A stretch of 64,000 nucleotides of DNA. Origin: an uncultured Candidatus Saccharibacteria bacterium (GTDB lineage Bacteria; Patescibacteriota; Minisyncoccia; Phycocordibacterales; UBA918). This document shows positions 4,515-26,512 of this stretch, piece after piece. Location: the NCBI GenBank assembly GCA_964402035.1, contig CAYOAM010000002.1:106111-170110 (forward strand), given 5' to 3'. The translations under genes were made by a program, and so were the position numbers. The first letter of the stretch is position 1. The number at the start of each line of letters is the position of its first letter. Under the pieces are notes generated by a model. It was not told where the DNA came from and searched no databases. It worked only from the letters and a program-made list of their open reading frames with translations.

Positions 4515-4575
4515 ACGTTTTTTAGGATGTGTATCCCAAGGACCGTCCTTGGGATTGCTGCCTGGTCTCAACAAT

Positions 4576-7500: not shown

Positions 7501-10500
7501 CGCACCATACCCATTACCAGTATTGTATGTACCAGTTGTGTTACTTGAGAGAACGAAGGCCCCGCTCGCTGTATTATAATTACCGCTTGTATTATTCAAT
7601 AATGCATTAGTACCGACAGCAGTATTATTACTACCCACCGTATTACTAAAAAGTGCATTCGTACCAACAGCAACACTGTAAAAACCAGTTGTATTGAAGG
7701 TTAATGTGTTGTAGCCTACCGCCGTATTTTCAATTCCATTTGTGTTGTTTCGTAGTGCATTGTCGCCAATTGCTACATTCTGAATACTTGAGGTGCTGGT
7801 ATAGAGCGCATTTGATCCAATAGCAATATTGCCGTCTTGTTTTCCACCCAACGTCAGTATTGGTATACCTGAGATATCATTAATCGTAAACGCACGACTT
7901 GTCGTACTAATTTCCTTTATAGAAACAGAATCAAGTGCCCACGCAGATGTATTTGCAACAGTATTCCCGGTAAATGTAATGGTCTCTGTACCCGTTACTC
8001 CTGAATCAAACGTGACGGTTGATGTACCAGCACCAAAGGGTCCCCAATTCTGATATGCATTTACACTTGGTGACAAAAAGTACGTCACTTGCTCACGGGT
8101 GGTTGAAGAAATATTTAAGGTAAGTTGGTAGGTCTTTCCTGCAACAACTGCAAATGTTGTTGAGGCACTCGAACCAGTACATCCGGAGACGTTTGATACG
8201 ATATTGCCCGCACTCCATGCGACACACGCGCCCAGGTTCCAGCTACTTGCGTCCGTATCAAAATTGCCATTCGTGATAAGTTCGCTTCCGTACGTTGGCG
8301 TATCACTATTGATCGACAGTTTTGCAGTTGGTGTTGTGCTACCAATACCTACTCGGCCAGTATTTGTAACCGTAAATAGACTGCCGTCAACATTTGCAAG
8401 GTTGAAGATATCACCCGTTCCCAGCTGTGTTAAGTTTGCCAACGCTACCGACGTTGAGCCAGTCATTGTAAGGAGGCTATACCCAACTTCGCCTGGAGTA
8501 TCGAGTGTGATGCGATTGGTCTCAAGATAGCGAGTGTTGGTACCCCCATCAGAAATGCGCTCGGCTCCTGGGCCAGAGTAGCGATTTCCTGAAAGCGTGT
8601 TGTCGGTACTACCTGCAAGGAATCCTGAAATTTCAATAGCATATCCGGTGCCCTCAAAGTCAGTAATTTGGTTATTACTAATGATATTTTGATCACCCAG
8701 CAAGAAAATGTTGCTATCCGCCGAATTTCCAGCGGCATTATATATGACATTGCCATCAATCACACTATCACTCATACCAAAAGCTGAGATAGCACTCCCT
8801 GTCGTACTACTAATACTATTTCCCCTAATCGTAATTGCTCTAGGTGGTGTAAATGAGTAATCTACAGCAATACCACTACCTGCTATATACGCAAGGATGT
8901 TATCGGTAACCATCACCTCTCTCGAATCTTCACCAATCTTAATGCCGTCAAATGCAACACCTGAAATATTATTGTGGGACACATCGGCACCAATAAGTTG
9001 TGCCGCATCTACACCACGCACACCCGAGCCGCGTATCGTGTTGCCGCGCACCATAAGGCCATAGGTATACTGTCCAACGTTTGCACTGCCAGCATAAATA
9101 GACCGATCCCCTGAGTCTATAATCTGATTGTCGATAATCCGCACATTGTTTGCTTTCACTCGCACTGCGGCGCTATTTGACCCACCAAAATCTTGTACAT
9201 AAAGATTTTCAATGGTCGAACTTGCGGATCCCTCATTAAAATACAGCCCATCCCAGCCTTGAGAGACATGGTGATTGTGTATATTCCCGTCCATGCTGAG
9301 GTTTGAAACTCGCACATATGGAGCGACCGAATAGATCGCATAGTTGTTTACTGAATCAGAGAGTGTTGAAGAAGCTACGACTAACTTTGTGCCATTCCCC
9401 GCTCCGATCATTGTGGTGCCCGTTGCCAAAACGATCGAAGCACTTTCTGAAGTTGAAATTCTCGTTGAAGTTCCAAGATAATAATTTCCCTCAAGAAGGT
9501 AGACAATACCACCATGCGTTGAAGATGCATTTCCCGCTACATACGCAGCATTGATAGCGCGATTAATCTCAACCTCGTCACGAACACCATCTGCTATATA
9601 ATCAGCTTTTTCCTTGTTATTCGAGTCAGACGCAGCAACGATAAAAGTTGCCGTACTCCTGTCTCCCTGCCACGTTCCAGATGCGTACGTGTACATCTGC
9701 CCGCGATCAGTCCTAAAGTACATGGTGCCTTCTAGCGGACTAGTCGGGAAAGAAGTGCCGCCGATGATGCGGATTGTTGAAGACGCCACTAGATAGGTGG
9801 TCGTCGCGTTTTGTGTCACTGTGGATGCAAACGAGACGTTGCCTCCAAAACTTGGATTGGTGTTAAACACAAGTGAACCAGTGCCTGTTTCATCTCCCAA
9901 GATTGAAAGAAGTTCGGCTGATGTATCAATCGAGGTACTTCCAAGCTTGTTGCCAAAGATCGTGAAGTCAGAGGACGTCAAAAGACCAAGTGCATTAATG
10001 CTACTTGCCTGAGGGATATTGAGCGTATGAATGTTACTACCAGATGAAAATCCAAAGCCACCATCACTCGAGGTTGTTGCAAAGATCTGTGTAGCTCCCG
10101 TCTGGCCATTGAGCGACGTGAGCGCTGTTGCAGGAAGACACGTGCCATTCATGGCAAAACAGCCAGTCGCGATATCAATGCCGTTTCGTGCTGTTGTTGA
10201 TCCCGTATTTGAAATACTAAAAAGTGTCGTTGTCGCTGTTGCTGTCGAAGAAGCAAGGGCAAACAGTGTCGTGCTGCCATAACTGGCAGGAGTATGAATG
10301 GCAAAGCGCGCTGACGGAGAGGATGTACCAAAACCAATACTGCCTGATTGACCATTGATCCTAAATTGCTCGGTCACGACTGGTGTGATGTTTGCAACAC
10401 GAACGACAAAATCGGCAGACGTATCCGCAGAACGAATGACAGCGATTTCACCACGTCCTTGGGTAGCGGCTGCCGTCGTACTATTTATGAAACGTAACGT

Positions 10501-13500
10501 GCTTGCGGTACCTGCGGAAGCGCCATTGGAACGTAATGAAAGCAATCCCGTCTCAGTACCAGCAGCACCACCAACAACTTCCATTTTAGTGTTTGCTGCG
10601 GCGGTACCAAAGCCTACAAAACCATTATTGGTTATGCTCAATAATGATGTGGTGGCGGTAAGCGCGTCGCTTGAAGTCCCAATAGAAAAGGTACCGCCAA
10701 GATTTGAGAGTAACCAATGTTTATTGTCGGTACTTGCATCGATGTCTGAGAGCGCAAGATATGGAGTACTTGAGGCTACTTGCAGCGTCCAATTTGGCGT
10801 TGTTGTTCCAAGTCCAAAATTGCCGAGCGATGTAAGTCGCGCCATTTCTACCAAACCTACCGTTGCACTATTTTTTGTTGAAAATGTGAGCGCTGATTGT
10901 GGTGTTGCAATTGCAGTATTGGTAAACACCGCAGCAATGCGTGCAGTCGCCGTTGCATTTAATCCGGCGTCTTGTGTTGAGAATAATAAACCTGTCCCGA
11001 TGCCAGCCGCTGGTGCAGTTCCTGTTGCGCTGTGTGAAATCTGCATCACGTCCGCAATACCATTAAAGGTACTGTCGGTAATATTGGCATTTAACGCATA
11101 GATATTTGCGAGTGATGTTGAGCTTGCTTTGCTAAAACTTCCTTGCCCCGTCACCAACAACCCGCCATCACCAACATTTAAGCCCCCGTTGATGTATGCA
11201 TTGTTATCGACAACAAGGTTTTCGGCAATATTCACCTGATTTGCTGCGAGAGCTCCAATATTTGCTGCAGGCACATCTATTCCACCGATATCAAAAATGC
11301 GTAGTCCAGCACTATCGTCTGCCACATACGCAAATTTTCCAGCTACATAGGTTCCGAGCGCTGAGCCAACAGTGTCATACGTACCAACCTGATATGGTGC
11401 AGTTGCAGATGCGACATTGATAACAGAAATTCCCGATGCGCTATCGGCAATATACGCATATTTTCCCGTTACATAGATACCGTTTGCGGTACCAGCGGTG
11501 TCAAAATTGCCAACAATAGCAGGCTGCGAAGGATCCGCTACATCAATAATCTGAAGACCAGAACCACTATCAGCGATATATACATATTTACCAGCTTGTG
11601 CGACAGCAAGAGAGGAACCTGACGTATTTGTGGTACTTGCAAGCGTCGGCGAAGACGGATTTGAGATATCAATAGTTTGGAGACCTGCGTTTCCATCCGC
11701 AACGTAGGCGTATTTCCCGTTTACCACAACACCATTTGCAATACCAGACGTATTGAATGTGCCTGCGAGACGAGGAATAAATGGATTGCTGATATCGAGT
11801 ATCTGCAGACCGGCAGACCCATCAGCCACATACGCATACTGACCAGAAACATACACGCCGGATGCGAGACCGGGAGTGTTGTATAGGCGTGCCAAGCGTG
11901 GTGCAAAAGGATTACTGATATCAATGATTTGGAGACCAGCAGTATCGTCAGCGACGTACGCATATTTTCCCGCAACATATACGCCATACGAAGTACCTGA
12001 AGTGTCGTACGTACCCAGTAATGTCGGTAGATCGGGATTTGAAATATCAAAAATCTGGAGACCGGATGCGCTATCTGCGACATACGCGTATTTTCCTGAA
12101 ACAAATACCTGTCGTGCAAGTCCCAAAGTGTCATACGTACCCAACGGAATTGGATCACCTTGCGTTTGCACGAGAGTACCAGCATGCACCAAAATTTTTG
12201 TGGATGTCGCCACGTCGGTCGTTGTCGTGCCAATCGTGAGCTTGCCCCCCAGGTACATATTGCCGGTAGTCGTCGCCCCACCATTGATCGTAAGTCCAGT
12301 CTGCTGTGTACCACCACCAATTGTTGAAGACCCGACAGCCAATAGTGACGGCGCACCAAGTACCGTCCCATCAAATGTGAAGCCTGCATTTGATGTGAGC
12401 GTGTCGGTATCGGACCAATACGCGATACGGTTCGTATCACCCGATCCATCAATTGTTGAACCTGCACCAACACAGACATTGTTTACCGCAAAACAACCAG
12501 AAGCAATGTTGATGCCATTTACCGCAGTACTTGTTCCAGTACCCGTGACTGAAAATGAACGCGCAAGAGTTGTGGAGGAATTGGTAATACTAAAGAGTGA
12601 CGAGGTAGTAGTGAGATCATCACTCGAAGTGCCAATCGAGAAAATACCGCTAAGATTTGAAAAGAGCCAGTGTTTTTGATTTGTACCCGCATTGGTGTCG
12701 GTGATTGCAAGGTATGGAGTCGTTGACGCAACTTGCAGTGTCCACTGTGGTGTTGAGGTGCCAATACCGACATTCACAGCGTTACTACCTAACGCACCAA
12801 GTACCAATGCATTACTAATCTCAACAGCCGCATTGGCGCCGATAGCGGTTGCATTGTTGAGACTTGTCGCAATGCTCGATGCATTGGCTCCCAAGAAGGT
12901 GTTGTTGCTCCCCGATGAGAAAGTATTTCCTGCTTGATATCCGACGCCAGTATTGGTATTGCCTGATGAGTTCGAGAGTGCCGAATTACCAATAGCAGTA
13001 TTTTGATCTCCGGTAACATTACTGCCAAGCGCGCTATAGCCAAATGCACTATTTTCTGCACCATCATCATTTGCTCCAAGACTGCTGTTCCCAAATGCAT
13101 TGTTAAAACCACCAGAAACGTTTGCATCAAGTGCAGCACGTCCAAAAGCGCTGTTTGATTCGCCACTTTGGTTTGCATAGAGCGTTCCTTCTCCAAAGGC
13201 GCTATTGCTACCTCCCGCCGAATTGTATGTATACAATGCATTGTGACCAAACGCGGTATTGAATGCTCCCGTGGTATCGGATCTTAATGCGTTGAATCCA
13301 AAACCAGTATTCTGACCATTGGTCGATTTATTAAGTCCCGCACCAAGACCAGCAAACATACTTTCATTTTCAACAATTGAAAATACGGCCGCTTGATTGT
13401 ATGTCAAGATTTCTCCCGAAGAAGCATTGAAGTTTGTCGCGGTCGTAGTACCATTCACTGCGAGTCTGGTGATCGGCGTCGTGGTACCCACCCCCACATT

Positions 13501-14190
13501 TCCTCCATCGAGTACGGTAAACACTTCGGTTGCTCCATCAAAAATATTTAAAATATCTCCAGTACCACTTTGCGTGATCGTAAGTAGTGTCGAAGCAGAT
13601 GTACTTGCAAGTGAAGTCGACGTGTCACTTCGCAAAAATTGTGAAGACGTCAGTCCATCAAGACGATCTGCTTCAAAGGCGGCAGGAACGGTTCCTAAAA
13701 TTTTGCGTGGAGACATTTCCCCATCCCAACTTGGTGAGCCAGCAGAACCACCAACTTCAATACCCAGATACAGCGTTTGATTAAAATCGACTGATGTTAG
13801 CGCAGTACTACTTCCAAGCATCACACTAAAAAGTCCATTCCTAACTGTGATGCGATCTCCAGCCGCTGTACTTCGATCCTCGGTCCATACTGCAGTAGTT
13901 GTCGCGGCAGTCGGAGATGCGAGCAACCAGAATCGCATATGGTATGTTCCATCAGCAACCGTGACACCACCAGCATTCGTTAACTTGCCCTGATAATTTA
14001 TTTGAAAATTAGGCGCAGCTTCTGTTTGAGTAAATCCTACAAACACCATGGCAACAAAAAGACTCACAACACATGCAGTGCTGATTAATTTTCTTGCTAC
14101 CCAAGAACGATTTACTTTGTACATACTTAGCTTTTTCGACTGCTCTAAAAAAAGCGCTGCGTATTGCGCTCTCAATATTGTACCGTTCAA
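4576..14190 (-). CDS. Giant multi-domain surface protein of about 3200 aa with tail-fibre-like repeats, an LVIVD beta-propeller, a parallel beta-helix, a CBM-like domain and a C-terminal peptidase S74 intramolecular-chaperone domain.
   Basis: There is one uninterrupted 9.6-kb ORF. The N-terminal signal or TM segment is KLISTACVVSLFVAMVFVGF. The track start at 14190 is a TTG, and an ATG at 14124 (MYKVNRSW...) is the more likely start. Domain signatures are itemised in the sub-features below. Confidence 0.85.
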   Translation of the reverse strand: MNGTILRAQYAALFLEQSKKLSMYKVNRSWVARKLISTACVVSLFVAMVFVGFTQTEAAPNFQINYQGKLTNAGGVTVADGTYHMRFWLLASPTAATTTAVWTEDRSTAAGDRITVRNGLFSVMLGSSTALTSVDFNQTLYLGIEVGGSAGSPSWDGEMSPRKILGTVPAAFEADRLDGLTSSQFLRSDTSTSLASTSASTLLTITQSGTGDILNIFDGATEVFTVLDGGNVGVGTTTPITRLAVNGTTTATNFNASSGEILTYNQAAVFSIVENESMFAGLGAGLNKSTNGQNTGFGFNALRSDTTGAFNTAFGHNALYTYNSAGGSNSAFGEGTLYANQSGESNSAFGRAALDANVSGGFNNAFGNSSLGANDDGAENSAFGYSALGSNVTGDQNTAIGNSALSNSSGNTNTGVGYQAGNTFSSGSNNTFLGANASSIATSLNNATAIGANAAVEISNALVLGALGSNAVNVGIGTSTPQWTLQVASTTPYLAITDTNAGTNQKHWLFSNLSGIFSIGTSSDDLTTTSSLFSITNSSTTLARSFSVTGTGTSTAVNGINIASGCFAVNNVCVGAGSTIDGSGDTNRIAYWSDTDTLTSNAGFTFDGTVLGAPSLLAVGSSTIGGGTQQTGLTINGGATTTGNMYLGGKLTIGTTTTDVATSTKILVHAGTLVQTQGDPIPLGTYDTLGLARQVFVSGKYAYVADSASGLQIFDISNPDLPTLLGTYDTSGTSYGVYVAGKYAYVADDTAGLQIIDISNPFAPRLARLYNTPGLASGVYVSGQYAYVADGSAGLQILDISNPFIPRLAGTFNTSGIANGVVVNGKYAYVADGNAGLQTIDISNPSSPTLASTTNTSGSSLAVAQAGKYVYIADSGSGLQIIDVADPSQPAIVGNFDTAGTANGIYVTGKYAYIADSASGISVINVASATAPYQVGTYDTVGSALGTYVAGKFAYVADDSAGLRIFDIGGIDVPAANIGALAANQVNIAENLVVDNNAYINGGLNVGDGGLLVTGQGSFSKASSTSLANIYALNANITDSTFNGIADVMQISHSATGTAPAAGIGTGLLFSTQDAGLNATATARIAAVFTNTAIATPQSALTFSTKNSATVGLVEMARLTSLGNFGLGTTTPNWTLQVASSTPYLALSDIDASTDNKHWLLSNLGGTFSIGTSSDALTATTSLLSITNNGFVGFGTAAANTKMEVVGGAAGTETGLLSLRSNGASAGTASTLRFINSTTAAATQGRGEIAVIRSADTSADFVVRVANITPVVTEQFRINGQSGSIGFGTSSPSARFAIHTPASYGSTTLFALASSTATATTTLFSISNTGSTTARNGIDIATGCFAMNGTCLPATALTSLNGQTGATQIFATTSSDGGFGFSSGSNIHTLNIPQASSINALGLLTSSDFTIFGNKLGSTSIDTSAELLSILGDETGTGSLVFNTNPSFGGNVSFASTVTQNATTTYLVASSTIRIIGGTSFPTSPLEGTMYFRTDRGQMYTYASGTWQGDRSTATFIVAASDSNNKEKADYIADGVRDEVEINRAINAAYVAGNASSTHGGIVYLLEGNYYLGTSTRISTSESASIVLATGTTMIGAGNGTKLVVASSTLSDSVNNYAIYSVAPYVRVSNLSMDGNIHNHHVSQGWDGLYFNEGSASSTIENLYVQDFGGSNSAAVRVKANNVRIIDNQIIDSGDRSIYAGSANVGQYTYGLMVRGNTIRGSGVRGVDAAQLIGADVSHNNISGVAFDGIKIGEDSREVMVTDNILAYIAGSGIAVDYSFTPPRAITIRGNSISSTTGSAISAFGMSDSVIDGNVIYNAAGNSADSNIFLLGDQNIISNNQITDFEGTGYAIEISGFLAGSTDNTLSGNRYSGPGAERISDGGTNTRYLETNRITLDTPGEVGYSLLTMTGSTSVALANLTQLGTGDIFNLANVDGSLFTVTNTGRVGIGSTTPTAKLSINSDTPTYGSELITNGNFDTDASSWNLGACVAWSAGNIVSNVSGCTGSSASTTFAVVAGKTYQLTLNISSTTREQVTYFLSPSVNAYQNWGPFGAGTSTVTFDSGVTGTETITFTGNTVANTSAWALDSVSIKEISTTSRAFTINDISGIPILTLGGKQDGNIAIGSNALYTSTSSIQNVAIGDNALRNNTNGIENTAVGYNTLTFNTTGFYSVAVGTNALFSNTVGSNNTAVGTNALLNNTSGNYNTASGAFVLSSNTTGTYNTGNGYGALNSNTTGTFNTAVGWDALLRSTSGANSVAIGAAALYLNRSATATVAVGYGAGLGVSGVTASQNNVFIGTLAGSGNTTGNNNVLVGYGAGNNLTSGSNNIVLGYDIDAPNALATNTLNIGNILFGTNINGTQGTLSSGSLGIGTTTPNWTLQVASTSAYFALTDTDAGTDQKHWLLSNVGGVFSIGTSSDALTATSSRFTITQEGNVGLGMSNPTTRLQLPDDQYSSLGTSADAKFVWETADADANRLNLILPENDGTNVPVFVVGDASVDNVDLTVFNGASDPLVVVMNDGGTNYSSFDASGVFGLTNLSVTASDNLSLTSGTGASEAINFYTNAGSSLRMTVLNGGNVGIGTSSPNWTLNIASSTPYLALTDTDAGTNMKNWLISNLGGVFSIGTSTDSYSATSTKFSISMATTSINTGLDVYSGAITYDPVANNTYIERLNTGPIEFENDAGVLSWINLPISASSTSGAVQSFSAQIDSNQLFTIYGQSNGSGALQKARSVFGTSTNTVLDSTNVPYGSVLIADGALCVDNGAGNTCASSARTRGFVYAEGSSLAGLDLAEVYLSTDLTLQKGEVVMFDPDHARHVSRFDTAVASTTSTRFAGVVSSDPGLLLGGFTDDVTAEAKIPLALAGRVPVRVSNEGGVIAIGDPISVGGEPGYAARATSTGVIIGFALDAETFATTSTSTIDVFLNYTHRFADNDFYIDPVSGNIGIGTTSPQYALQVVGDVAAQSFVNVSTESAKKDITHISASTTDAIIADLKNIQVAQYRYNTEEESAPLRLGLIAEEAPSAVLSADGKGVDIYKLATFNIAATQALSLKVDSLETRVVSLETLLAGGGAAVGSSGVLGVLHDLGITIENGVAYFKGLFADTLTVGTSEKRTGITLYDEATGEPYCLSIENGETKTVAGECVVVRPVVEEIPNDPPIDPPPPAEDVPPEGGDPVIEPVPDPEPAPEQSPEPSPEPAPESGDGG
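4579..4750 (-). other. Pro/Glu-rich low-complexity C-terminal tail of the giant protein (PNDPPIDPPPPAEDVPPEGGDPVIEPVPDPEPAPEQSPEPSPEPAPESGDGG).
   Basis: Direct translation. The tail lies distal to the S74 autoproteolytic domain and would be released if self-cleavage occurs. Confidence 0.6.
5010..5330 (-). other. Peptidase S74 / intramolecular chaperone auto-processing domain (endosialidase and tail-fibre type) inside the giant protein.
   Basis: The segment STESAKKDITHI...LRLGLIAEEAPSAVLSADGKGVDIYKLATFNIAATQALSLKVDSLETRV matches the S74 consensus (SDERLKxNI ... GfIAQEvEEv.PE.V ... dG...v.Y..L.plLieAiKEL). A coiled-coil-like stretch follows. Confidence 0.65.
6301..6456 (-). repeat. Intragenic repeat module, copy 4 (GIGTSSPNWTLNIASSTPYLALTDTDAGTNMKNWLISNLGGVFSIGTSTDS).
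   Basis: It is one of four copies of a 150-nt, 50-aa module of consensus G[IL]GT[ST]TPNWTLQVAS.TPYLA[IL]TDTDAGT[ND]QKHWL[LF]SNLGG.FSIGTSSDALTAT. I verified it by reverse-complement translation. Confidence 0.8.
6935..7086 (-). repeat. Intragenic repeat module, copy 3 (LGIGTTTPNWTLQVASTSAYFALTDTDAGTDQKHWLLSNVGGVFSIGTSSDALTATSS).
   Basis: Same module as copy 4, verified by translation. Confidence 0.8.
7200..7710 (-). repeat. Second block of NT..G..AL-type short repeats (tail-fibre or phage-fibre-like: NTAVGYNTLTFNTTGFYSVAVGTNALFSNTVGSNNTAVGTNALLNNTSGNYNTASG...).
   Basis: Direct translation. The periodicity of about 13-15 aa also shows up in the antisense ORF 7070-7579 of the track. Confidence 0.6.
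8550..9300 (-). other. Right-handed parallel beta-helix (PbH1 / pectate-lyase-like) region of the giant protein.
   Basis: Repeated motifs NNQIIDSGDRSIYAGSAN, GNTIRGSGVRGVDAA, SHNNISGVAFDGIKIG, TDNILAYIAGSGIAVD, IRGNSISSTTGSAISAF and DGNVIYNAAGNSADSNIF have PbH1-type spacing. Confidence 0.6.
10664..10815 (-). repeat. Intragenic repeat module, copy 2 (GLGTTTPNWTLQVASSTPYLALSDIDASTDNKHWLLSNLGGTFSIGTSSDALTATTS).
   Basis: Verified by translation. Confidence 0.8.
11270..12150 (-). other. LVIVD-type repeat (beta-propeller) region, about eight repeats of YAYVAD..(A/S)GLQI(I/F)DISNP..P.
   Basis: Translated repeats such as GKYAYVADSASGLQIFDISNPDLPTLLGTYDTSG, GKYAYVADDTAGLQIIDISNPFAPRLA and GQYAYVADGSAGLQILDISNPFIPRLAG. 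Confidence 0.65.
12622..12775 (-). repeat. Intragenic repeat module, copy 1 (GIGTSTPQWTLQVASTTPYLAITDTNAGTNQKHWLFSNLSGIFSIGTSSDDLTTTS).
   Basis: Verified by translation. Confidence 0.8.
12840..13320 (-). repeat. First block of NT..G..AL-type tail-fibre-like short repeats (NTGFGFNALRSDTTGAFNTAFGHNALYTYNSAGGSNSAFGEGTLYANQSGESNSAFGRAALDAN...).
   Basis: Direct translation. Confidence 0.6.
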
Positions 14191-14261
14191 CCGCTTATTT
14201 TACGGATCAAAATTAGAAAAGTAGTGGATAAATATGTACCAAAATTTCCTCTAAAATTTTT
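14125..14261 (-). promoter_or_regulatory. AT-rich intergenic region upstream of the giant gene. It may carry a weak intrinsic terminator for the upstream Fn3 operon (minus-strand RNA AGCGC-AAUACGCA-GCGCU followed by seven U, at + strand 14147-14170) and a promoter for the giant gene.
   Basis: Seen in the sequence. The 5-bp GC stem plus U-tract is weak, and I recognised no consensus -35/-10 pair. Confidence 0.25.
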
Positions 14262-15833
14262 CTAAATTGTCGCTATTGTTTTCTTTTCTTGTTTACTGAG
14301 CTTTGTGTAGATAAGCAACAACATGAGTAATAGGAAAAAAGCGAACGTCCAGCGGCTAAGTATCGAAAGTATGTAATCGGTAAATGTTGTTTCAGGAACC
14401 GCAGTCATAGGGATCATGTTTAATGACGGAACAACGTGCAAGGTACCCTCCGCTTTTGAAAGACTTCTATTTTTGTAATCCAACACAAATACTGAAATCG
14501 GGTAACTACCGATATCTCGGATGGCCGAGATAAGTCCAGTATAAGCCGTTTTTTGTTTATTTATTCTCAATAAAAATGAAAATTCTTTAGTACTATCAAC
14601 AGAATCGTGCAAAGTAACAATGATAGTTTTTAGATGCTCAGGAAGCTCTTCATACGGTATATTTATTTCAAACGGACTTAAATTATCTATAGCTAGCTCT
14701 TTGCCGATGAATGAAACCTCCTTTCCGTTTTGATAAAAATGTATAGCACTAAATGAAAAAGGTTTATACAGGGGTGCAGTCTCGAATTCTTGTATCGGAG
14801 TGGGACTTTCAGAATTAGGATTCTGACGAGCAACCCGCACAATTGCGCCTGATGAGCTATTGCCGATTTTATCGTACGAGAATAGTGTATAGTAGTGCCG
14901 TTCTGAAGCGCTAAAAGCCCCATTATCACGAAAAGAAGTGTCTAACCCTTCATATATCAATTCACCATCAAATGGGTCTTTGGGATAGCTTATAGAGCTT
15001 CTTATGATGCGTACATGACTAAAGTCTTCACTTAGCGGATTTTTCCACATGAGCACAGCATCATTTCCGTCAGGGGCACCCCGCAAGAGGGAAACGTTTG
15101 GCGGGGCCTCTAGGTCGAGATCGCGATCAGTTACAAAAATATCTTGTCGTAGTACGGTCTCATTGCCTGATCGATCTGTCGCAATAATCCTAAATTCATA
15201 ACGAGTATGTGGCTTCAAATCTACAATGTGTGTGGAGTGTCGTCTTAGTAACGTTCGTTCTACTAAGGCACCCATTTCAAATGATGACGAAATCCCCCAC
15301 GAAACAGTTGCGCGCGTTGGAATTGAAGTCTCCCAGTATAAAGTTGCACTATGTTTATCAACGGTTATGCGAAAATTTGTGATCTGAGGAATGATAGGTA
15401 CTACAGCACCGCCTCCCCCTGCACCAGTTACAGTAGGACTTGAAGTCGCTAGAGCAAACGTTGTATCGGATGTGGTTGCTGAGCGTGCACTGATATTTCC
15501 GACGGCATCAAACGCCGTAATGTTGTAATCGTATGTCGTACTATCAGTAAGTCCGGTATCTGTGTATGCAAGAAGCGCTGTCGTTGCAATCTGGACGTTA
15601 TCACGAAAAATTTGATACCCAGTGACCGCTATATCATCGGTCGATGCATCCCAAGTAATATCAATAGCATCGCTATCCACCGCGGTTGCCAAAACATTCA
15701 GCGGTATAGTAGGAGCTCCCGTATCAGCCGCAACAACACTTTGCGAGATAGTAAATGTATCAGTAACAGCAAACGAGACATTATTACTAACCAGGATTGC
15801 ACATATAGTTATGAATAATAAAACATATTTCAT
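14262..15833 (-). CDS. Fibronectin type III domain membrane protein with an N-terminal signal peptide and a C-terminal TM anchor.
   Basis: The segment DAIDITWDASTDDIAVTGYQIFRDNVQIATT is Fn3-like, and a second Fn3-like segment follows (RITVDKHSATLYWETSIP). The signal peptide is MKYVLLFITICAILVSNNVSFA. The C-terminus has a hydrophobic helix (FAFFLLLMLLLIY) followed by a basic stretch. Confidence 0.7.
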   Translation of the reverse strand: MKYVLLFITICAILVSNNVSFAVTDTFTISQSVVAADTGAPTIPLNVLATAVDSDAIDITWDASTDDIAVTGYQIFRDNVQIATTALLAYTDTGLTDSTTYDYNITAFDAVGNISARSATTSDTTFALATSSPTVTGAGGGGAVVPIIPQITNFRITVDKHSATLYWETSIPTRATVSWGISSSFEMGALVERTLLRRHSTHIVDLKPHTRYEFRIIATDRSGNETVLRQDIFVTDRDLDLEAPPNVSLLRGAPDGNDAVLMWKNPLSEDFSHVRIIRSSISYPKDPFDGELIYEGLDTSFRDNGAFSASERHYYTLFSYDKIGNSSSGAIVRVARQNPNSESPTPIQEFETAPLYKPFSFSAIHFYQNGKEVSFIGKELAIDNLSPFEINIPYEELPEHLKTIIVTLHDSVDSTKEFSFLLRINKQKTAYTGLISAIRDIGSYPISVFVLDYKNRSLSKAEGTLHVVPSLNMIPMTAVPETTFTDYILSILSRWTFAFFLLLMLLLIYTKLSKQEKKTIATI

Positions 15834-16582
15834 AAGGCGAGCGCGGTAATTGTTGTTGTCGCTGTATATGTCCCTGGAGCCTGACTTACAGAACCTCCTA
15901 TGCCGACTCTGAAGCGTATTTGCGTCAAAGTCCCCGTGGGGGTATTCGCTGAAGATCTATACACAATTGTCTGTGCTACTGTCGAAAGTCCATCCCAGCA
16001 TGCAAAATTCGTGTCACCAGAGCCGGTATTGCAGCCTATCCCATCATCTTTGAATCGTGTTGCAATATCGGTACCTTCGGGAGAAAATCCAAGATGTGAT
16101 TCACTTGCCACCGTAGAGAATATGTAGTCGGGATTTGCACCAGCTGGTACATAATCCGCAATCGTATTTGCACCAAATTTCATTGCAGGGCTTGTCGAGG
16201 CAGCAATGGTGAGCTGATATCCACCTGAACTATCAGTAGTCGCAATAACGGTTGTAGATCCGTTACTTTCACCGCCCGTCACCCCACCGAGCGTAGGAGA
16301 CAGCGTAACATTAGTTGCACCAGAAAGTGCTAAATAGGCGGCCTGTAAGGCTTGGTAACCAGCACTCAGATTGTAGGAGGTGCTACTTGAAAAACCAGTT
16401 GCAACTTCCCCTATCGTATCTTCAAGTTTGTACGACGTCGACGAGCTAAATGATCCACCAATATTGATACTGTCGCTCTCGATACGATAACTAGTACTTT
16501 GCATGACTTGTGCCGATGCCGTAGACAGCGAGAGAAGAACAGTGACGACCGCAATACCAATGTGGCGTGGAGATTTACACAT
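15830..16582 (-). CDS. Secreted protein, paralog of 17592-18296. It is a possible WxL-like (degenerate) cell-surface protein.
   Basis: The signal peptide is MCKSPRHIGIAVVTVLLSLSTASAQ. The protein is S/T/G-rich. Shared paralog motifs are GY.[LM]TIAAS..PAM, DD...CNTGS.DT....CW.GLS and the C-terminal .GTYTATTT[IL]TA, which resembles the WxL C-terminal signature (..YT.TL.WTL) but lacks the Trp. Confidence 0.45.
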   Translation of the reverse strand: MCKSPRHIGIAVVTVLLSLSTASAQVMQSTSYRIESDSINIGGSFSSSTSYKLEDTIGEVATGFSSSTSYNLSAGYQALQAAYLALSGATNVTLSPTLGGVTGGESNGSTTVIATTDSSGGYQLTIAASTSPAMKFGANTIADYVPAGANPDYIFSTVASESHLGFSPEGTDIATRFKDDGIGCNTGSGDTNFACWDGLSTVAQTIVYRSSANTPTGTLTQIRFRVGIGGSVSQAPGTYTATTTITALAL

Positions 16583-16594
16583 AGATTTGACGCT

Positions 16595-17584
16595 TTACTT
16601 TCTCTTTATTTCAAATGTCCGTACTATAAAACGTATGCAGAAAAAGACGAGAGCTAGAGCCAGAACAGCGAGAGCTAACAGCTTCCAGGGGACTACGTAG
16701 AACGTGACGCTCTTGGTGTCAATAATATTGTCGTAGCCTCGATTAATTTTTATGTCTGCCGTGTATCGTCCAAAAAGATATGGCCTGTCCCAGCTCAGTT
16801 CACGAAGTCGTACTGATTGTGGCAATGAAAACCATGGGTCAGCGACAACAACGCCAACCTCCTCACCCAGCATATTTTTTATACTTAGAACGCCATAAGG
16901 ATTCAAATGTACCGAACCAGTGTTTTTGTACAGAACTTGAAAATGTATTGGCCCGTTTGCATAAAAAGGTGTATCAGGAATGGTTTTAAAACTCTGCAAC
17001 TCACCACTTTTTTCTATATCTCCGGGCACCGTGACAAAAAACAAAGCCCCGATTCGAGAAATGATAACTGAACCTGATTTTGCCCCACTCTGCACTGGCT
17101 TTTCTCCTGATTCTGGTACCGATGTCGTAGTAACAAGCACACTACCATACAACCCCCCCGGTTGCGCATCGGCAGGTACAGAAATAGTCACTGGTATACG
17201 AGCTCGCTCGCCCTGCCCTAGTTCAAACGTTTTTTCCGGAAACTTAAAGTAATCCTTAAGTGAGTACGGACCTCGATCGTCTCCAAGTAATACTACCGTC
17301 TGATCAGGATCATCAGAACCTTTTGTATCCTCAACCTCGAGTGAAAAAAGGCGTCTATCACCCATTCTATTCGTCACCATAAGCTCGACAACTCGATCCT
17401 TGCCTGCCTCTATTGTGAGATCTACTTTTGTTGGTCCTACAACAAAATCGCCAAAAACCTGATCACCGCCGGGAATCTGTTCAATTGGGTATGCAGCGTC
17501 AGCCAGTGGTATGCATATAAAAAAAGTACCAAAAAGCAGAAATAGAGCGGTGTATGGTACCACGCTACGTATTGTTAGATGCAT
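16595..17584 (-). CDS. Cell-surface protein with an N-terminal signal peptide, an Ig-like beta-rich ectodomain and a C-terminal TM anchor. Its architecture is DUF916/DUF3324-like (CscA-like).
   Basis: The N-terminus is MHLTIRSVVPYTALFLLFGTFFICIPLADA. The C-terminus is WKLLALAVLALALVFFCIRFIVRTFEIKRK. The segment VGPTKVDLTIEAGKDRVVELMVTN fits an Ig-like strand pattern. The gene sits between the two WxL-like paralogs. Confidence 0.4.
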   Translation of the reverse strand: MHLTIRSVVPYTALFLLFGTFFICIPLADAAYPIEQIPGGDQVFGDFVVGPTKVDLTIEAGKDRVVELMVTNRMGDRRLFSLEVEDTKGSDDPDQTVVLLGDDRGPYSLKDYFKFPEKTFELGQGERARIPVTISVPADAQPGGLYGSVLVTTTSVPESGEKPVQSGAKSGSVIISRIGALFFVTVPGDIEKSGELQSFKTIPDTPFYANGPIHFQVLYKNTGSVHLNPYGVLSIKNMLGEEVGVVVADPWFSLPQSVRLRELSWDRPYLFGRYTADIKINRGYDNIIDTKSVTFYVVPWKLLALAVLALALVFFCIRFIVRTFEIKRK

Positions 17585-17591
17585 ACCTGTA

Positions 17592-18296
17592 TTAATTAGC
17601 CGTTGCAGTCAGTGTTGTAGTTGCGGTATAGGTATCTTCAGCGATTGAAGGAGCCGGGTTTGAAGTAATCTGCGTTCTAAAGAAAAAGGTGGTCGTTGCT
17701 CCTGAAGCAGTTGTTGCAGTTGTTCTTAGTATTGTAGATGTTGCAGACGAACTTAAACCATACCAACATGAAGAAGATCCACTGGTATCTGCAGAGCCAG
17801 TATTACATGCTGCCGTATCGTCAAGAAATTTTTGTGCTAGGTCTGAAGTAGTGCTAGCCGAGACAGTATATGCAAACTCACCAGTATTGGCACCGACTGA
17901 ATGTGAAAAGTCAGGTATCCCCGCCGTTGCATTGGTATAATTCGGAATACTACCTCCTTGAGTATTTCCTTGCATTGCAGGAGTACCACTCGCGGCAATC
18001 GTCATCGTGTAGCCGGTGTTGTTGTTGGTGTAAACACGAACTTGCGTTGCCCCGTTCGCAGTACCTCCTGTGAGGCCGGGGATTGCGGTATCCATGGTGA
18101 CATCAGCTCCAGTGCCGACAAAAGAAATTTCAGCAGTCACCGACTGTGAAATCGAAAACTGATCAAAGGCCTGAGAACGAATCACCGTCGGCTCAAGAAA
18201 AACATACATTGCCAAAAAAGCAACAAGTACAAATCCAGCGACAAGTGTCGACCTTCTAAAATCTTCTATCAGACCTGCAATATGTACTCTAGGCAT
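17592..18296 (-). CDS. Secreted or anchored protein, paralog of 15830-16582. It is a possible WxL-like (degenerate) protein.
   Basis: An N-terminal hydrophobic segment (LVAGFVLVAFLAMYVFL) is present. It shares motifs with 15830-16582, including the C-terminal EDTYTATTTLTATAN. Confidence 0.45.
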   Translation of the reverse strand: MPRVHIAGLIEDFRRSTLVAGFVLVAFLAMYVFLEPTVIRSQAFDQFSISQSVTAEISFVGTGADVTMDTAIPGLTGGTANGATQVRVYTNNNTGYTMTIAASGTPAMQGNTQGGSIPNYTNATAGIPDFSHSVGANTGEFAYTVSASTTSDLAQKFLDDTAACNTGSADTSGSSSCWYGLSSSATSTILRTTATTASGATTTFFFRTQITSNPAPSIAEDTYTATTTLTATAN

Positions 18297-18376
18297 ATAG
18301 GATTTTTCTTATTTATAAGATGATATATCTTAAAGTATACAGCACATACGTCGTCCTAACCGTTGACTATCCACAT

Positions 18377-19099
18377 CTACGTTGACGTGCTAACTTCCTC
18401 CTCTATTGGAACCATTAGAAAACGATACTGTGATTCTGATTTATTTTTAAAATGAGGCGTCACAATACCTGATGTACCCTCAGGATCCTTCTGTACGCTC
18501 ACTTCGTCTGAAAATGAATCGGCAATTTCGGTCAGTGAACGAGTGTCACTCGGTGGAACAACCACCATACCACTTTGGTTTTTTTTATCAGTGGCAGATG
18601 CTTCTTGTTGTACTGCAGTGCTTTGTACTGCCGCCGTTTCCGTCCTATCACCCATACTATAGAGCTCAGCAGCAATTGAACGTAAAACCTCTACTACGGT
18701 AGCAGATGACACCTGCGAACTCGGAAATGCTATATTGGCGTAGAAAAAAGCACCTACCACTACACTTGCACATAAAACCAAACCAGCTTTTGCTAACACG
18801 AGAGCTCGTGACTGCGGCACTGGCAATACCTGCATAACAACCTTTCTTGAACCAATTTCGACGCGCTCTCGAAGCCGCTCCTTTCGGACTCGTTCAGCAT
18901 TTTGACGTTTTATTTCTTCAGTATTTTCAACAAAAACAGCAAGGGATTTTGCATCTACAAACCATTGCCTACCAACTCGAGTACCAAGCACTTTCTTTTC
19001 GCGTGCCAATCGAGCAACATAGTCATTGGTATAACCAAATTGGCGTCCCGCTTCCACAGCGGACATCAATCCATCTTCTATATTGGCTGTCTGATCCAT
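18377..19099 (-). CDS. Single-pass membrane protein with an N-terminal excisionase / MerR-type helix-turn-helix.
   Basis: The segment GRQFGYTNDYVARLAREKKVLGTRVGRQWFVDAKSL matches the HTH_17 / excisionase DNA-binding motif (G..Y..rL.r.g...g.r.Gr.W). The TM helix is LVLAKAGLVLCASVVVGAFFYANIAF. The C-terminal part is about 110 aa. Confidence 0.65.
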   Translation of the reverse strand: MDQTANIEDGLMSAVEAGRQFGYTNDYVARLAREKKVLGTRVGRQWFVDAKSLAVFVENTEEIKRQNAERVRKERLRERVEIGSRKVVMQVLPVPQSRALVLAKAGLVLCASVVVGAFFYANIAFPSSQVSSATVVEVLRSIAAELYSMGDRTETAAVQSTAVQQEASATDKKNQSGMVVVPPSDTRSLTEIADSFSDEVSVQKDPEGTSGIVTPHFKNKSESQYRFLMVPIEEEVSTST

Positions 19100-19223
19100 A
19101 TGCGAATATTACCCGAGGCAACTATTTCCTAAGTATATACGTATTTTGAAGCATTGAATCGACTGGTTTCTGAATATGTGGAAATCTTTACTCAAATACC
19201 CGCTATCCACCAAGCACAAAGTA

Positions 19224-20135
19224 CTAGCGTGAGAGTTGCTTCAATACACTCGATACCGCCGCAAGATTATATGAAGCTTTATATACCGGTCCTGTTTTTA
19301 TGCTCTCACCTCTCTCGTACACCAAAACCCTTTGCAAGAAAACACTAGAGAAACTAACGCAGAAAGCCACCATAACGGCCAACGGGACCAGGGCAAATAC
19401 AAATGGTCTAGCCACCGATCTCTCTATAACCGGAATTTTATCGACAGCACTCGTAATACCGACTCTTTCTAACTTTTCGACAAAATTTGGAGGCACTGCC
19501 ACGACATGGTGCGGGTGCGGAATAGTATGCACGTTCTTTTCCTTCTGTTCTTCAATCTCTAAGTCAGTAATACTAAGTTCGCCCTCCATAAGCGGTTCAC
19601 TTTTCTTAAAACTCAAATCTGCATTTTTTTCAATGACATCAACCTCGAGTTTTAACTCCTCGTCATCCCCATCAATATTATCACTACCTTCAACTACAAC
19701 TTCAGTATCATGGTCTAATTCAGCTACAACATCTCCAACTTTATTTAGTCGAATATGGACTGCCTCATCGTCTTCTCGAGAAAACGGAGGATCTAGCGGA
19801 GCATTATCTCGCTCATACGTGATTTTAGTATGCAAAAGACGTTTCCGATATTCGGGCATTAGTGCTGGGTTATACAAAGAATTATGAATCTCGTGCGGTA
19901 GTTCTTTCTTTACGAGTTCAATATGCTCCAATGTTTTCTCCTTGTTTGAACGTCTATTATTTTTTTTGTATGAAAGAACATCTTCTTCACGTACATACCA
20001 AACGCGACCGATGCGCTTTGCTTCAATCTTTCCAGCTCTAGAAAGCTGGCCTATATAGTCAGTTGTATAGCCGGTCTGATCAGCCGCATCTGATGCCTTT
20101 ATAAAACGCACGCCGTCTATATCAATAACATTCAT
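19224..20135 (-). CDS. Single-pass membrane protein with an N-terminal excisionase / MerR-type HTH. It is a paralog of 18377-19099.
   Basis: The segment DQTGYTTDYIGQLSRAGKIEAKRIGRVWYVREEDV is the same HTH family. A long acidic linker (DGDDEELKLEVDVIEKN...) follows. The C-terminal TM is PFVFALVPLAVMVAFCVSFSSVFL. Confidence 0.65.
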   Translation of the reverse strand: MNVIDIDGVRFIKASDAADQTGYTTDYIGQLSRAGKIEAKRIGRVWYVREEDVLSYKKNNRRSNKEKTLEHIELVKKELPHEIHNSLYNPALMPEYRKRLLHTKITYERDNAPLDPPFSREDDEAVHIRLNKVGDVVAELDHDTEVVVEGSDNIDGDDEELKLEVDVIEKNADLSFKKSEPLMEGELSITDLEIEEQKEKNVHTIPHPHHVVAVPPNFVEKLERVGITSAVDKIPVIERSVARPFVFALVPLAVMVAFCVSFSSVFLQRVLVYERGESIKTGPVYKASYNLAAVSSVLKQLSR

Positions 20136-20244
20136 AAATTTTATTATACGCCTACTGAACAGTTTGAAAGTCTAAAACAAGTAATCACTGTGCATAAAGC
20201 AACCTGCATCAAAAAATACAAGTTAACGAAATTTCTTTACAATA

Positions 20245-26190: not shown

Positions 26191-26230
26191 ACCATAAAAA
26201 AGCATAAAGTCCTCCTTGTGGGAGGACTTT
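26191..26230 (-). terminator. Rho-independent terminator on the minus strand: a 10-bp perfect stem (aaagtcctcc / ggaggacttt), a 5-nt loop, then AUGCUUUUUUAU.
   Basis: I verified the stem arms as exact reverse complements, and a U-tract follows immediately downstream on the minus-strand RNA. It lies just downstream of the micro-ORF stop and 12 nt upstream of the secA start. Confidence 0.7.
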
Positions 26231-26263: not shown

Positions 26264-26353
26264 TTACTTGCGGCGTGATGACTTTTTTGCAGTCTTCTTC
26301 TTTGCTGCTTTCTTAGCAGGCTTTCGCTTTGCTGCTTTTTTCTTTGCGGCCAT
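26264..26353 (-). CDS. Candidate 29-aa Lys/Ala-rich basic micro-protein (MAAKKKAAKRKPAKKAAKKKTAKKSSRRK).
   Basis: The minus strand has an ATG at 26351-26353 and a TAA at 26264-26266, and the strong intrinsic terminator follows directly. It is not in the supplied track, which omits ORFs under 60 aa. A low-complexity Lys-rich ORF can arise by chance in AT-rich DNA, but the dedicated terminator argues for expression. Confidence 0.3.
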   Translation of the reverse strand: MAAKKKAAKRKPAKKAAKKKTAKKSSRRK

Positions 26354-26512
26354 ATATATTGTGTGGTGACAATTTTTTTAGCTTGTTGAAATTCGACCGC
26401 ACCATTTTCTTCGTGAGAAGAAAATATTGCTACTCACACAATTATCCGTCACAAAAAGTTTACGCACAATCGAAAATAAATTTTTTATGTGGATAACATT
26501 TCTAAATATTTT

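Follow-up and report, generated by a model that had tools for sequence, protein, structure and literature searches.

Gene organization at the locus

Two adjacent genes, here called A and B, lie on the minus strand of a 64,000-nucleotide stretch of DNA (the window) that is part of a 461.7-kb metagenomic contig, CAYOAM010000002.1, of an uncultured Candidatus Saccharibacteria bacterium. The gene content of the window is that of a Patescibacteria genome. Each encodes a protein with a small N-terminal domain of predicted excisionase/MerR-type helix-turn-helix (HTH) fold, followed by a single predicted transmembrane (TM) helix and a part predicted to lie outside the cytoplasm. In related genomes the A-type gene is followed by a gene for a surface fibre or pilus component, or is itself fused to a fibre, and A and B are very probably dedicated components of a surface-fibre locus.

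An earlier annotation made from the letters of the window alone (the sequence-only reading) had proposed both open reading frames (ORFs) and had placed the pair directly downstream of a surface-protein operon. The two ORFs are present as proposed, adjacent and on the minus strand (Table 1), but their relation to the operon is reversed by the direction of transcription: the minus-strand order is gatB, then B, then A, then the surface-protein genes, so that A and B are 5' (upstream) of the operon. The spacer between B and A is 124 nt. No terminators are predicted between B, A and the operon, and a scan for sigma-70 consensus promoters returned fewer sites than did shuffled sequences and none in the relevant spacers. 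Between positions 14100 and 20400, a search for repeats and shared long motifs yielded short repeats at chance level only; between 14000 and 27000 no known RNA family was found, the sole match being a chance-level Phe_leader; and the window shows no anomaly of composition.

Domain architecture of A and B

AlphaFold2 (AF2) models the N-terminal regions of A and B as winged HTH domains with a predicted local distance difference test score (pLDDT) of 93-98, the head consisting of a small beta-hairpin, a helix, a turn, a recognition helix and a beta-hairpin wing. The top local matches of the heads in a Foldseek search of PDB (about 46-58 aligned columns; whole-model E-values are weak, 0.006-0.1 at best and none at or below 0.001) are excisionase/MerR-type DNA-binding domains, namely Pukovnik Xis (4j2n), BldC (6amk/6ama), RacA (5i44) and RdfS (8dgl), with TraN also among the matches of the B head. 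Over about 50 residues the heads superpose on Xis, BldC, RacA and RdfS with a TM-score to target of 0.6-0.75 and a root-mean-square deviation of 1.3-2.8 Å; for the B head and Xis 4j2n the deviation is 1.3 Å at 28% identity.

Profile searches point to the same fold at the level of the families. B matches Pfam HTH_17 (PF12728) at E=7e-5 (23.4 bits, curated cut-off 27 bits), whereas A alone has no Pfam match and reaches E=0.04 with TIGR01764 'excise' (14.3 bits, cut-off 28.8). HTH_17 is found at E<0.01 in 26 of 36 A orthologues (best 4e-7) and in 13 of 19 B orthologues (best 1e-7). No family member has a MerR or MerR_1 Pfam match, and in the AF2 model the long helix that follows the HTH of A runs into the TM helix, not into an effector domain, so that the proteins are not MerR regulators. 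Nor is there a match to Trans_reg_C, the OmpR/PhoB-type domain of ToxR-like proteins, or to HTH_25, DUF4115 or other RodZ or ZipA domains of Pfam, in A, B or members of the family.

Three blocks are conserved in the A family: the HTH (FGYT.DYV.RLAREKKI....VGRQWFVD), in which Y23, D26, Y27, L31 and W46 are invariant; a basic helix with the motif LRxERKxER, in which R75 and E78 are invariant; and a C-terminal SFSDEV...YRFLMVP block. Residues R30, R33, K36 and G43-R44 of A are also conserved and are the basic residues typical of DNA-contacting HTH_17 domains. Because the N-terminal flank of the TM segment is strongly basic (10 K/R in residues 60-97), the HTH of A is predicted to be cytoplasmic (N-in). 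The basic helix is predicted to be cytoplasmic and membrane-adjacent, and it may have a role in dimerisation like that of the long helix after the HTH in MerR and RacA. The 114 residues beyond the TM segment are modelled as a helix and a disordered stretch that lead to a small unit of three strands (mean pLDDT of the whole A model, 78.9). This unit has the motif G.VV.P......SFSDEV.V..D..G..G.ITP.FK......YRFLMVP and predicted beta strands at 200-204, 210-215 and 225-228 (pLDDT 75-86); it occurs once in the window, and no counterpart was found in Pfam, NCBIfam or PDB, including a PDB search with the A profile.

In B, the head is followed by a basic stretch (HKK..RSNK.KT), a conserved PEYRKRLL..I.YE.D..PL.P motif and a variable acidic linker that is predicted to be disordered over residues 120-237 (pLDDT <50). 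The charges flanking its TM segment are approximately balanced, and the N-in orientation is predicted because the 240-residue N-terminal region has no signal peptide. The TM segment is found at the equivalent position in all B orthologues and at the same position in nearly all A orthologues.

Much of this layout had been anticipated by the sequence-only reading, which described an HTH of excisionase/MerR type in both proteins, to be checked against HTH_17, one TM helix in each, an acidic linker of about 150 residues with a short tail in one protein, and a C-terminal domain of about 110 residues in the other. The family-level profile matches and the predicted Xis-, BldC- and RacA-like folds bear out the HTH; the Kyte-Doolittle maxima are 2.27 for A (19-residue window) and 2.44 for B, with both segments modelled as helices; the linker of B is about 180 residues long with a net charge of about -17, and its tail is 35 residues; and the C-terminal region is that of A. 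The same reading called A and B tandem paralogues. Their similarity is limited to the first 60-85 or so residues (BLASTP E=4e-11, 28% identity), and alignment of the two families with hhalign gives 99.2% over 60 columns. Paralogy stands, but a recent tandem duplication does not, and A and B are anciently diverged paralogues that are separately conserved across Paceibacteria-type lineages.

Table 1. Position of A, B, their predicted domains, the downstream surface genes and copies of the upstream 9-mer in the window.
Feature	Position	Strand	Basis or detail
ORF A	18377-19099	minus	240 aa
A residues 9-50, predicted winged HTH (FGYTNDYVARLAREKKVLGTRVGRQWFV)	18950..19075	minus	alignment, pLDDT 97-98, Foldseek, HTH_17 family matches
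A residues 51-97, long basic helix	18809..18949	minus	AF2 helix 50-84, composition
A residues ~98-125, predicted TM helix	18725..18808	minus	Kyte-Doolittle, AF2 helix 98-124
A residues 176-235, conserved unit, predicted extracytoplasmic	18395..18574	minus	family alignment, AF2
ORF B	19224-20135	minus	303 aa
B residues 1-60, N-terminal beta-hairpin and predicted excisionase/MerR-type winged HTH (GYTTDYIGQLSRAGKIEAKRIGRVWYV)	19956..20135	minus	pLDDT 87-95, Foldseek, hhalign
B residues ~61-240, basic stretch, conserved motif, acidic linker	19416..19955	minus	composition, alignments
B residues ~242-268, predicted TM helix	19332..19412	minus	Kyte-Doolittle maximum 2.44, AF2 helix 242-266
B tail, 35 aa, predicted extracytoplasmic, conserved VYERG....P.Y..SY....VS	19227..19331	minus	alignments
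Pam/WxL-like pilus operon, directly after A	14262..18296	minus	NCBIfam, Pfam and PDB matches, architecture
Giant fibre protein gene, 3204 aa (3182 aa from ATG at 14124), signal anchor	4576..14190	minus	LVIVD, Beta_helix matches
9-mer, exact TTATCCACA	26488-26496	minus	ahead of small Lys-rich ORF preceding secA
9-mer TTATGCACA (8/9)	20189..20197	minus	gene orientation, 62 nt ahead of B start codon
9-mer CTATCCACC (7/9)	19203..19211	plus	reversed, in B-A spacer; weak atypical copy
9-mer CTATCCACA (8/9)	18367..18375	plus	reversed, in spacer between A and first pilus-like gene
9-mer TTATCCACT (8/9)	14223..14231	minus	gene orientation, ahead of giant-fibre gene

A family found in Patescibacteria

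Searches returned 48 close homologues of A and 18 full-length homologues of B. When a profile of A was run against 1.84 billion cluster representatives, 7929 clusters (counted at 50% identity) matched at E<1e-3, 3954 at E<1e-10 and 626 at E<1e-30, and nearly all of the best 150 matches are 230-300 residues long and aligned end to end. Among species-representative genomes, the closest loci are in Kaiserbacteria, Campbellbacteria, Nomurabacteria and metagenome-assembled genomes of Paceibacterota. By sequence and predicted topology, A and B belong to a large family of bitopic (N-in) membrane proteins that is specific to Patescibacteria; no description of it was found in the literature that was searched. 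The outside part is modular, being a 35-residue tail in B, a beta unit of about 50 residues in A, and a fibre of 640 to 2300 residues in other lineages.

Some members have HTH copies in tandem ahead of the TM helix (P0061, P0062, and the genes at L012:7944-8922, L025:1339-6515, and L049:1503-2438 and 2800-3742; L numbers denote related loci). In P0062 an A-type C-terminal block comes after two HTH copies, and the L025 protein has two copies joined to a fibre of more than 1700 residues. A 2299-residue fusion of HTH, TM helix and fibre, with a head 45% identical to A, is found on a 128-kb contig labelled Rhodospirillales bacterium (L011, WHTW01000002.1), which is either a contig from the Candidate Phyla Radiation (CPR) that was mis-binned or a case of transfer outside Patescibacteria.

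Association with surface-fibre genes

The gene neighbourhood was compared across 60 related loci (a few of them duplicates of one another) that came from exact-protein look-ups, a genome scan and a metagenome scan; they were annotated by BLAST and hidden Markov model searches against the window proteins, with gene calls taken as the longest ORFs, and because the loci share phylogeny their counts are not independent events. Wherever the sequence suffices, the order is (Wzy_C/TPR-MurB)-SecA-holin_4_2-(VTT)-Obg-GatB-B-A, and in loci with this GatB block B is always between gatB and A. For 33 short A-type genes the downstream neighbour could be read, and in every case it is a giant-fibre or pam-like gene on the strand of the A-type gene. 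At 18 loci this is a giant-fibre gene, with a gap from the A stop codon to the next start of -20 to +11 nt in 17 and of -4 nt in L059, where the neighbour is a 2220-residue giant that BLAST finds similar to the 523-residue protein of the window and that is counted here as giant-like. A Pam-like operon beginning with a homologue of the 234-residue protein follows A at 8 loci, as in the window, at a distance of 21 to 170 nt; a gene for a chaperone-like protein (like the 329-residue protein) at 6, at -4 to +9 nt; and a gene for a fibronectin type III (FnIII) protein, similar to the 523-residue one, at a single locus after 652 nt. In total, 23 of the 33 gaps fall within -20 to +11 nt.

One clade (L021, L022, L046, L047, L050 and L051) possesses neither the GatB block nor B, and here an A-like gene still directly precedes the gene for the chaperone-like protein; therefore the linkage is with the surface genes, not with the housekeeping block. 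At 10 or more loci (among them L011, L015, L023, L029, L031, L032, L039, L052, L053 and L055), the gene at the A position encodes the HTH and TM helix fused to a fibre ORF of 640-2299 residues. B-type heads are likewise fused to fibres in L024 and L025. The fused forms have neither the C-terminal unit of A nor the conserved N-terminal domain of the giant, whereas all split loci have both. The link between the pair and the surface-protein operon that the sequence-only reading proposed is thus strongly supported by the comparison of synteny that it recommended.

In L003, L005, L006, L007, L010, L012, L016 and L023, B and A are separated by an AT-rich spacer of 350-490 nt, and in L013 and L015 by more than 1 kb; a few relatives have an opposite-strand ORF inside it, and no tRNA was found in the long spacers.

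The downstream operon and the giant fibre protein

In the window, A is directly followed by an operon that encodes two paralogous proteins with signal peptides (234 and 250 residues), a 329-residue chaperone-like protein and a 523-residue FnIII protein, the latter two each with a C-terminal TM helix. These correspond to parts of the Pam pilus of CPR bacteria, which consists of PamA/B/E pilins, PamC/D chaperones, a PamT tip and a PamR anchor (bioRxiv 10.64898/2026.03.03.709456). Small Ig-like proteins with signal peptides are among the shared parts, and the architecture in the window agrees with what is described for PamC/D and PamR. The sequence matches to Pam and WxL families are all under the family cut-offs: the 250-residue protein matches NCBIfam PamT at E=5e-9 (36 bits, cut-off 240), and the 329-residue protein has weak WxLIP similarity (Pfam WxLIP_PGBD, E=1e-3; PDB EfmWxLIP1, E=0.047). 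The FnIII protein matches fn3 at E=5e-12. A and B themselves have no match among the Pam NCBIfam models, and so are not described Pam components.

Residues ~56-235 of the giant fibre protein form an N-terminal domain that is 49-78% identical in every split locus and is the best-conserved part of the separate giants; a Pfam search with the N-terminal 517 residues gave no informative match. The next gene (1752-4589, minus strand) begins 14 nt before the giant-fibre gene ends. It encodes a 945-residue protein with three Laminin_G_3/pentraxin-like lectin domains, which is probably part of the same surface cluster.

A 9-mer upstream of A, B and the surface genes

Related loci share the 9-mer TTATCCACA, scored at 8 or more of 9 positions, in gene orientation and within 200 nt upstream. 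It precedes the A-type gene at 27 of 38 non-redundant loci, lying 58-67, 77-84 or 101-107 nt from the start codon, and B at 10 of 28, at 53-67 nt. Ahead of neighbouring housekeeping and other genes it occurs in 3 of 82 cases in total (Obg 0/16, GatB 0/14, holin_4_2 0/8, SecA 1/8, other genes 2/36). The 9-mer is identical to the DnaA-box consensus, TTWTNCACA, which its permitted variants TTATACACA, TTGTCCACA and TTTTCCACA also fit. In the window, five consecutive intergenic regions have one copy apiece, the first ahead of secA and the last ahead of the giant-fibre gene (Table 1), where the copy TTATCCACT is 41 nt from a TTG start and about 100 nt from the ATG chosen by the gene caller. Elsewhere in the window, none of the 17 intergenic regions that are 40 nt or longer has better than a 7/9 match, and this, together with its absence ahead of Obg, GatB and holin in relatives, led us to reject the 9-mer as a general promoter element in the window. 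It marks the promoters of A, B and the surface genes as special, and autoregulation is not implied.

A second element, a 13-bp hairpin, lies in the roughly 35 nt directly 5' of the A-type start in eleven relatives (L008, L017, L019, L020, L034, L036, L037, L038, L040, L044 and L045; for example L017:7900-7931), with a constant CUUUA-UAAU-UAAAG centre and a variable outer stem. In the alignment, 93.7% of cells are paired, with five compensatory pairs and with G-U pairs on the sense strand, which suggests an RNA structure in the 5' untranslated region; the centre of the hairpin doubles as a TATAAT box. The upstream region of A in the window is without that hairpin.

The lysine-rich ORF behind the exact 9-mer copy encodes 29 residues (MAAKKKAAKRKPAKKAAKKKTAKKSSRRK; 26264-26353, minus strand) and lies between murB and secA. 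Behind it, at about 26195-26229, are a hairpin and T-run that resemble a terminator, and a small ORF is called in the place of the lysine-rich one in some relatives (L003, L006).

Interpretation and alternatives

The observed architecture, conservation, operon membership and fibre fusions are best explained, in our view, if A and B are the membrane-embedded base of an appendage, with the state of the fibre coupled to DNA binding and to expression of the locus, a reading that we adopt tentatively and hold at slightly less than even. A and B form the conserved 5' end of a locus for a giant surface fibre, which in the window also includes a pilus operon of the Pam/WxL-like donor-strand kind. On this reading, A would reach the fibre with its outside part, possibly by docking on the conserved N-terminal domain of the giant, and the HTH heads would bind the chromosome at the membrane. 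Expression of the locus could in this way be linked to the appendage's state of assembly or contact, by a logic like that of ToxR, CadC or PsaE with a different DNA-binding fold, and the ultrasmall size of the cells would make it easier to reconcile a membrane-bound regulator with access to DNA. The parts of this proposal are not equally probable. DNA binding by A and B is reasonably likely; transcriptional control of the locus is plausible but somewhat doubtful; and docking of the C-terminal unit of A on the N-terminal domain of the giant is rather unlikely. The absence of both of these pieces from the fused forms is what would be expected of docking partners replaced by a covalent link, and equally of fused fibres that are of another type.

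A number of observations weigh against a regulatory base of this kind. Neither window protein attains, on its own, a Pfam or NCBIfam cut-off, and the topology of both is predicted from their hydropathy and charge together with the helices in the models. No operator could be assigned to A or B: the copies of the 9-mer ahead of A and of the first pilus gene in the window are reversed or degenerate, and the box is constant while the recognition helix of A varies from TKDYMLLLAKDGKI to TNDYIGQLSRSKKI. Because of this constancy across divergent helices, a conserved factor such as DnaA or RNA polymerase is a likelier binder of the 9-mer than A or B. The proposal that the 9-mer is the operator of A is thus unsupported, since the variants of the 9-mer follow phylogeny and the same box is found beside very different helices; a shared upstream motif, for which the sequence-only reading had recommended a search, does exist, but binding by A or B does not follow from it. 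Translational coupling of A to the giant gene and covalent fusion to a fibre would be unusual for a pure regulator, and the near-touching genes and fusions fit a structural anchor or a contact sensor as well as a classical regulator of the kind that the sequence-only reading had in mind when it suggested that the pair might control the operon in response to the state of the envelope. Finally, the fused fibres may simply be a different fibre family, which would weaken the docking argument.

An extension of the same idea, which we think unlikely, is that the HTH and TM module physically and directly couples the chromosome to an extracellular fibre that contacts the host. Pulling on or assembly of the fibre might alter DNA binding or free the HTH head; if true, a single protein would act as a mechanical sensor of attachment to the host in these ultrasmall episymbionts. 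Alternatively, the module might pin the fibre locus at the membrane, with the 10-kb genes transcribed, translated and secreted in place. Split loci, which have the C-terminal unit of A and the N-terminal domain of the giant, and fused loci would then hold two variants of one device.

The main alternative dispenses with any control of transcription: HTH, basic helix and TM segment would fix a fibre or pilus as a pure structural anchor or assembly platform, the head serving in protein-protein contact or as a non-specific nucleoid tether that, for instance, holds the locus at the membrane while transcription, translation and secretion from a 10-kb gene go on together. We regard this as a serious if rather improbable account. 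It is favored by the covalent fibre fusions, by the overlapping or near-touching stop and start codons of A and the giant gene, by the lack of an operator attributable to A or B, and by precedents, since the HTH of RodZ binds MreB and RacA tethers the chromosome with this very fold. Yet the basic residues of the DNA-contacting type are conserved in A, the outside part of B, which would have to do any anchoring, is nearly absent, and the operon already supplies, in its PamR-like FnIII protein whose TM helix is C-terminal, what the Pam model proposes as the pilus anchor. It is less probable still that A and B are housekeeping envelope or division factors, RodZ-like or ZipA-like adaptors that stand beside gatB, obg, secA and murB by synteny alone. 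The block from Wzy_C/TPR-MurB through SecA, holin_4_2, Obg and GatB to B and A is indeed conserved in many loci, and RodZ has a similar series of parts, from the HTH through a basic juxtamembrane stretch, a TM helix and a disordered spacer to a small beta domain. Against this idea stand the retention of the A-like gene with pilus-like genes at loci that have no GatB block, the fusion of the module to fibre proteins, the surface-protein gene that is always downstream of A, and the lack of RodZ or ZipA matches in Pfam.

Two further explanations take up the resemblance to excisionases and the DnaA-like boxes. That the pair is the remnant of a mobile element, an excisionase or recombination directionality factor of an integrated phage or integrative and conjugative element, is scarcely credible, in spite of the HTH_17 and TIGR01764 similarity, the match of PHROG excisionase families to B at E=4e-4, and the presence of Xis and RdfS among the best structural matches. 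A tblastn search of A and B against 50,697 phage records gave no match, housekeeping and surface genes surround the pair and no integrase is among them, many lineages have the pair in the same place, a TM helix and long extensions are foreign to excisionases, and composition is unremarkable. A function in excision was rejected on the grounds of the missing integrase and phage matches and the stable context of gatB, obg, secA, murB and surface genes. Very improbable, too, is the idea that the 9-mers mark a replication origin or DnaA-box cluster, with the HTH pair tethering the origin to the membrane. The TTATCCACA-type boxes in five successive intergenic regions and the AT-rich spacers of some relatives would suit an origin, but there is a single box per spacer at a fixed, promoter-like distance from start codons, cumulative GC skew falls steadily over the whole 64 kb, and one strand carries nearly all of the genes that flank the pair on either side, between 1 and about 57 kb. 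The steady skew and the single gene orientation led us to reject an origin at the B-A spacer.

Comparison with known systems

The sequence-only reading likened A and B to one-component transmembrane regulators such as ToxR and CadC. In overall plan the likeness holds, for ToxR, TcpP, CadC and PsaE/PsaF are bitopic (N-in) and join, by one TM helix, a DNA-binding head in the cytoplasm to a part outside, as is predicted for A and B; membership in that family does not, because the head of ToxR-like proteins is a winged helix of the OmpR/PhoB type (Trans_reg_C), whereas that of A and B has the excisionase/MerR-type HTH_17 fold. The outside parts are also unrelated, and we know of no fusion of a ToxR-like head to a giant fibre. 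The genes psaEF are encoded directly upstream of the chaperone-usher genes psaABC. In Yersinia, the membrane proteins PsaE and PsaF as a pair control how the fimbrial gene psaA is expressed (PMC8407435), and a regulatory pair ahead of fimbrial genes parallels the order of B, A and the pilus-like operon.

Xis, BldC, RdfS and the N-terminal domain of RacA share both the fold and the Pfam clan of the A and B heads, and in RacA this fold is used to tether the chromosome to the membrane or pole by way of a long helix after the HTH. These proteins differ from A and B in being soluble, with no TM or extracytoplasmic domain and no link to a surface-fibre operon; Xis, BldC and RdfS are 50-70 residues long, and RacA binds DivIVA through a coiled coil. 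The layout of RodZ is nearly identical, for its N-terminal HTH leads by way of a basic juxtamembrane segment into a single TM helix, and a disordered spacer and a small beta domain at the C-terminus, outside, complete the protein. Its HTH, however, is of the XRE type (HTH_25) and binds MreB, and it has a DUF4115 domain; neither domain was detected in A or B, which are linked to fibre and pilus genes.

Patescibacteria (CPR) make up a very large share of the diversity of bacteria; their way of life is to be attached to other cells, and to our knowledge almost nothing is known of how their attachment structures are built, anchored and regulated. The family described here consists of membrane-tethered proteins of excisionase/MerR-type fold that are tied, sometimes covalently, to CPR surface fibres. 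We know of no earlier case of a membrane-tethered excisionase/MerR-type HTH coupled to a surface appendage; this would be the first. The known systems closest to the downstream genes are the Pam pilus and the WxL/WxLIP loci of Firmicutes, with which the operon after A shares its parts list, including a giant comparable to the neighbouring 'tail fibre-like' protein that the Pam model places next to membrane-anchored PapD-like chaperones and the PamR FnIII anchor (bioRxiv 10.64898/2026.03.03.709456). The difference is that no HTH or TM protein like A or B is reported in or beside the pam operon, and the Pam model names no regulator or cytoplasmic link (bioRxiv 10.64898/2026.03.03.709456). The A/B family, which has hundreds of sequence clusters and stands at the start of fibre and pilus loci, is an obvious candidate for that missing link, and it offers testable handles in two small HTH domains, a 50-residue outside unit and a defined upstream 9-mer.

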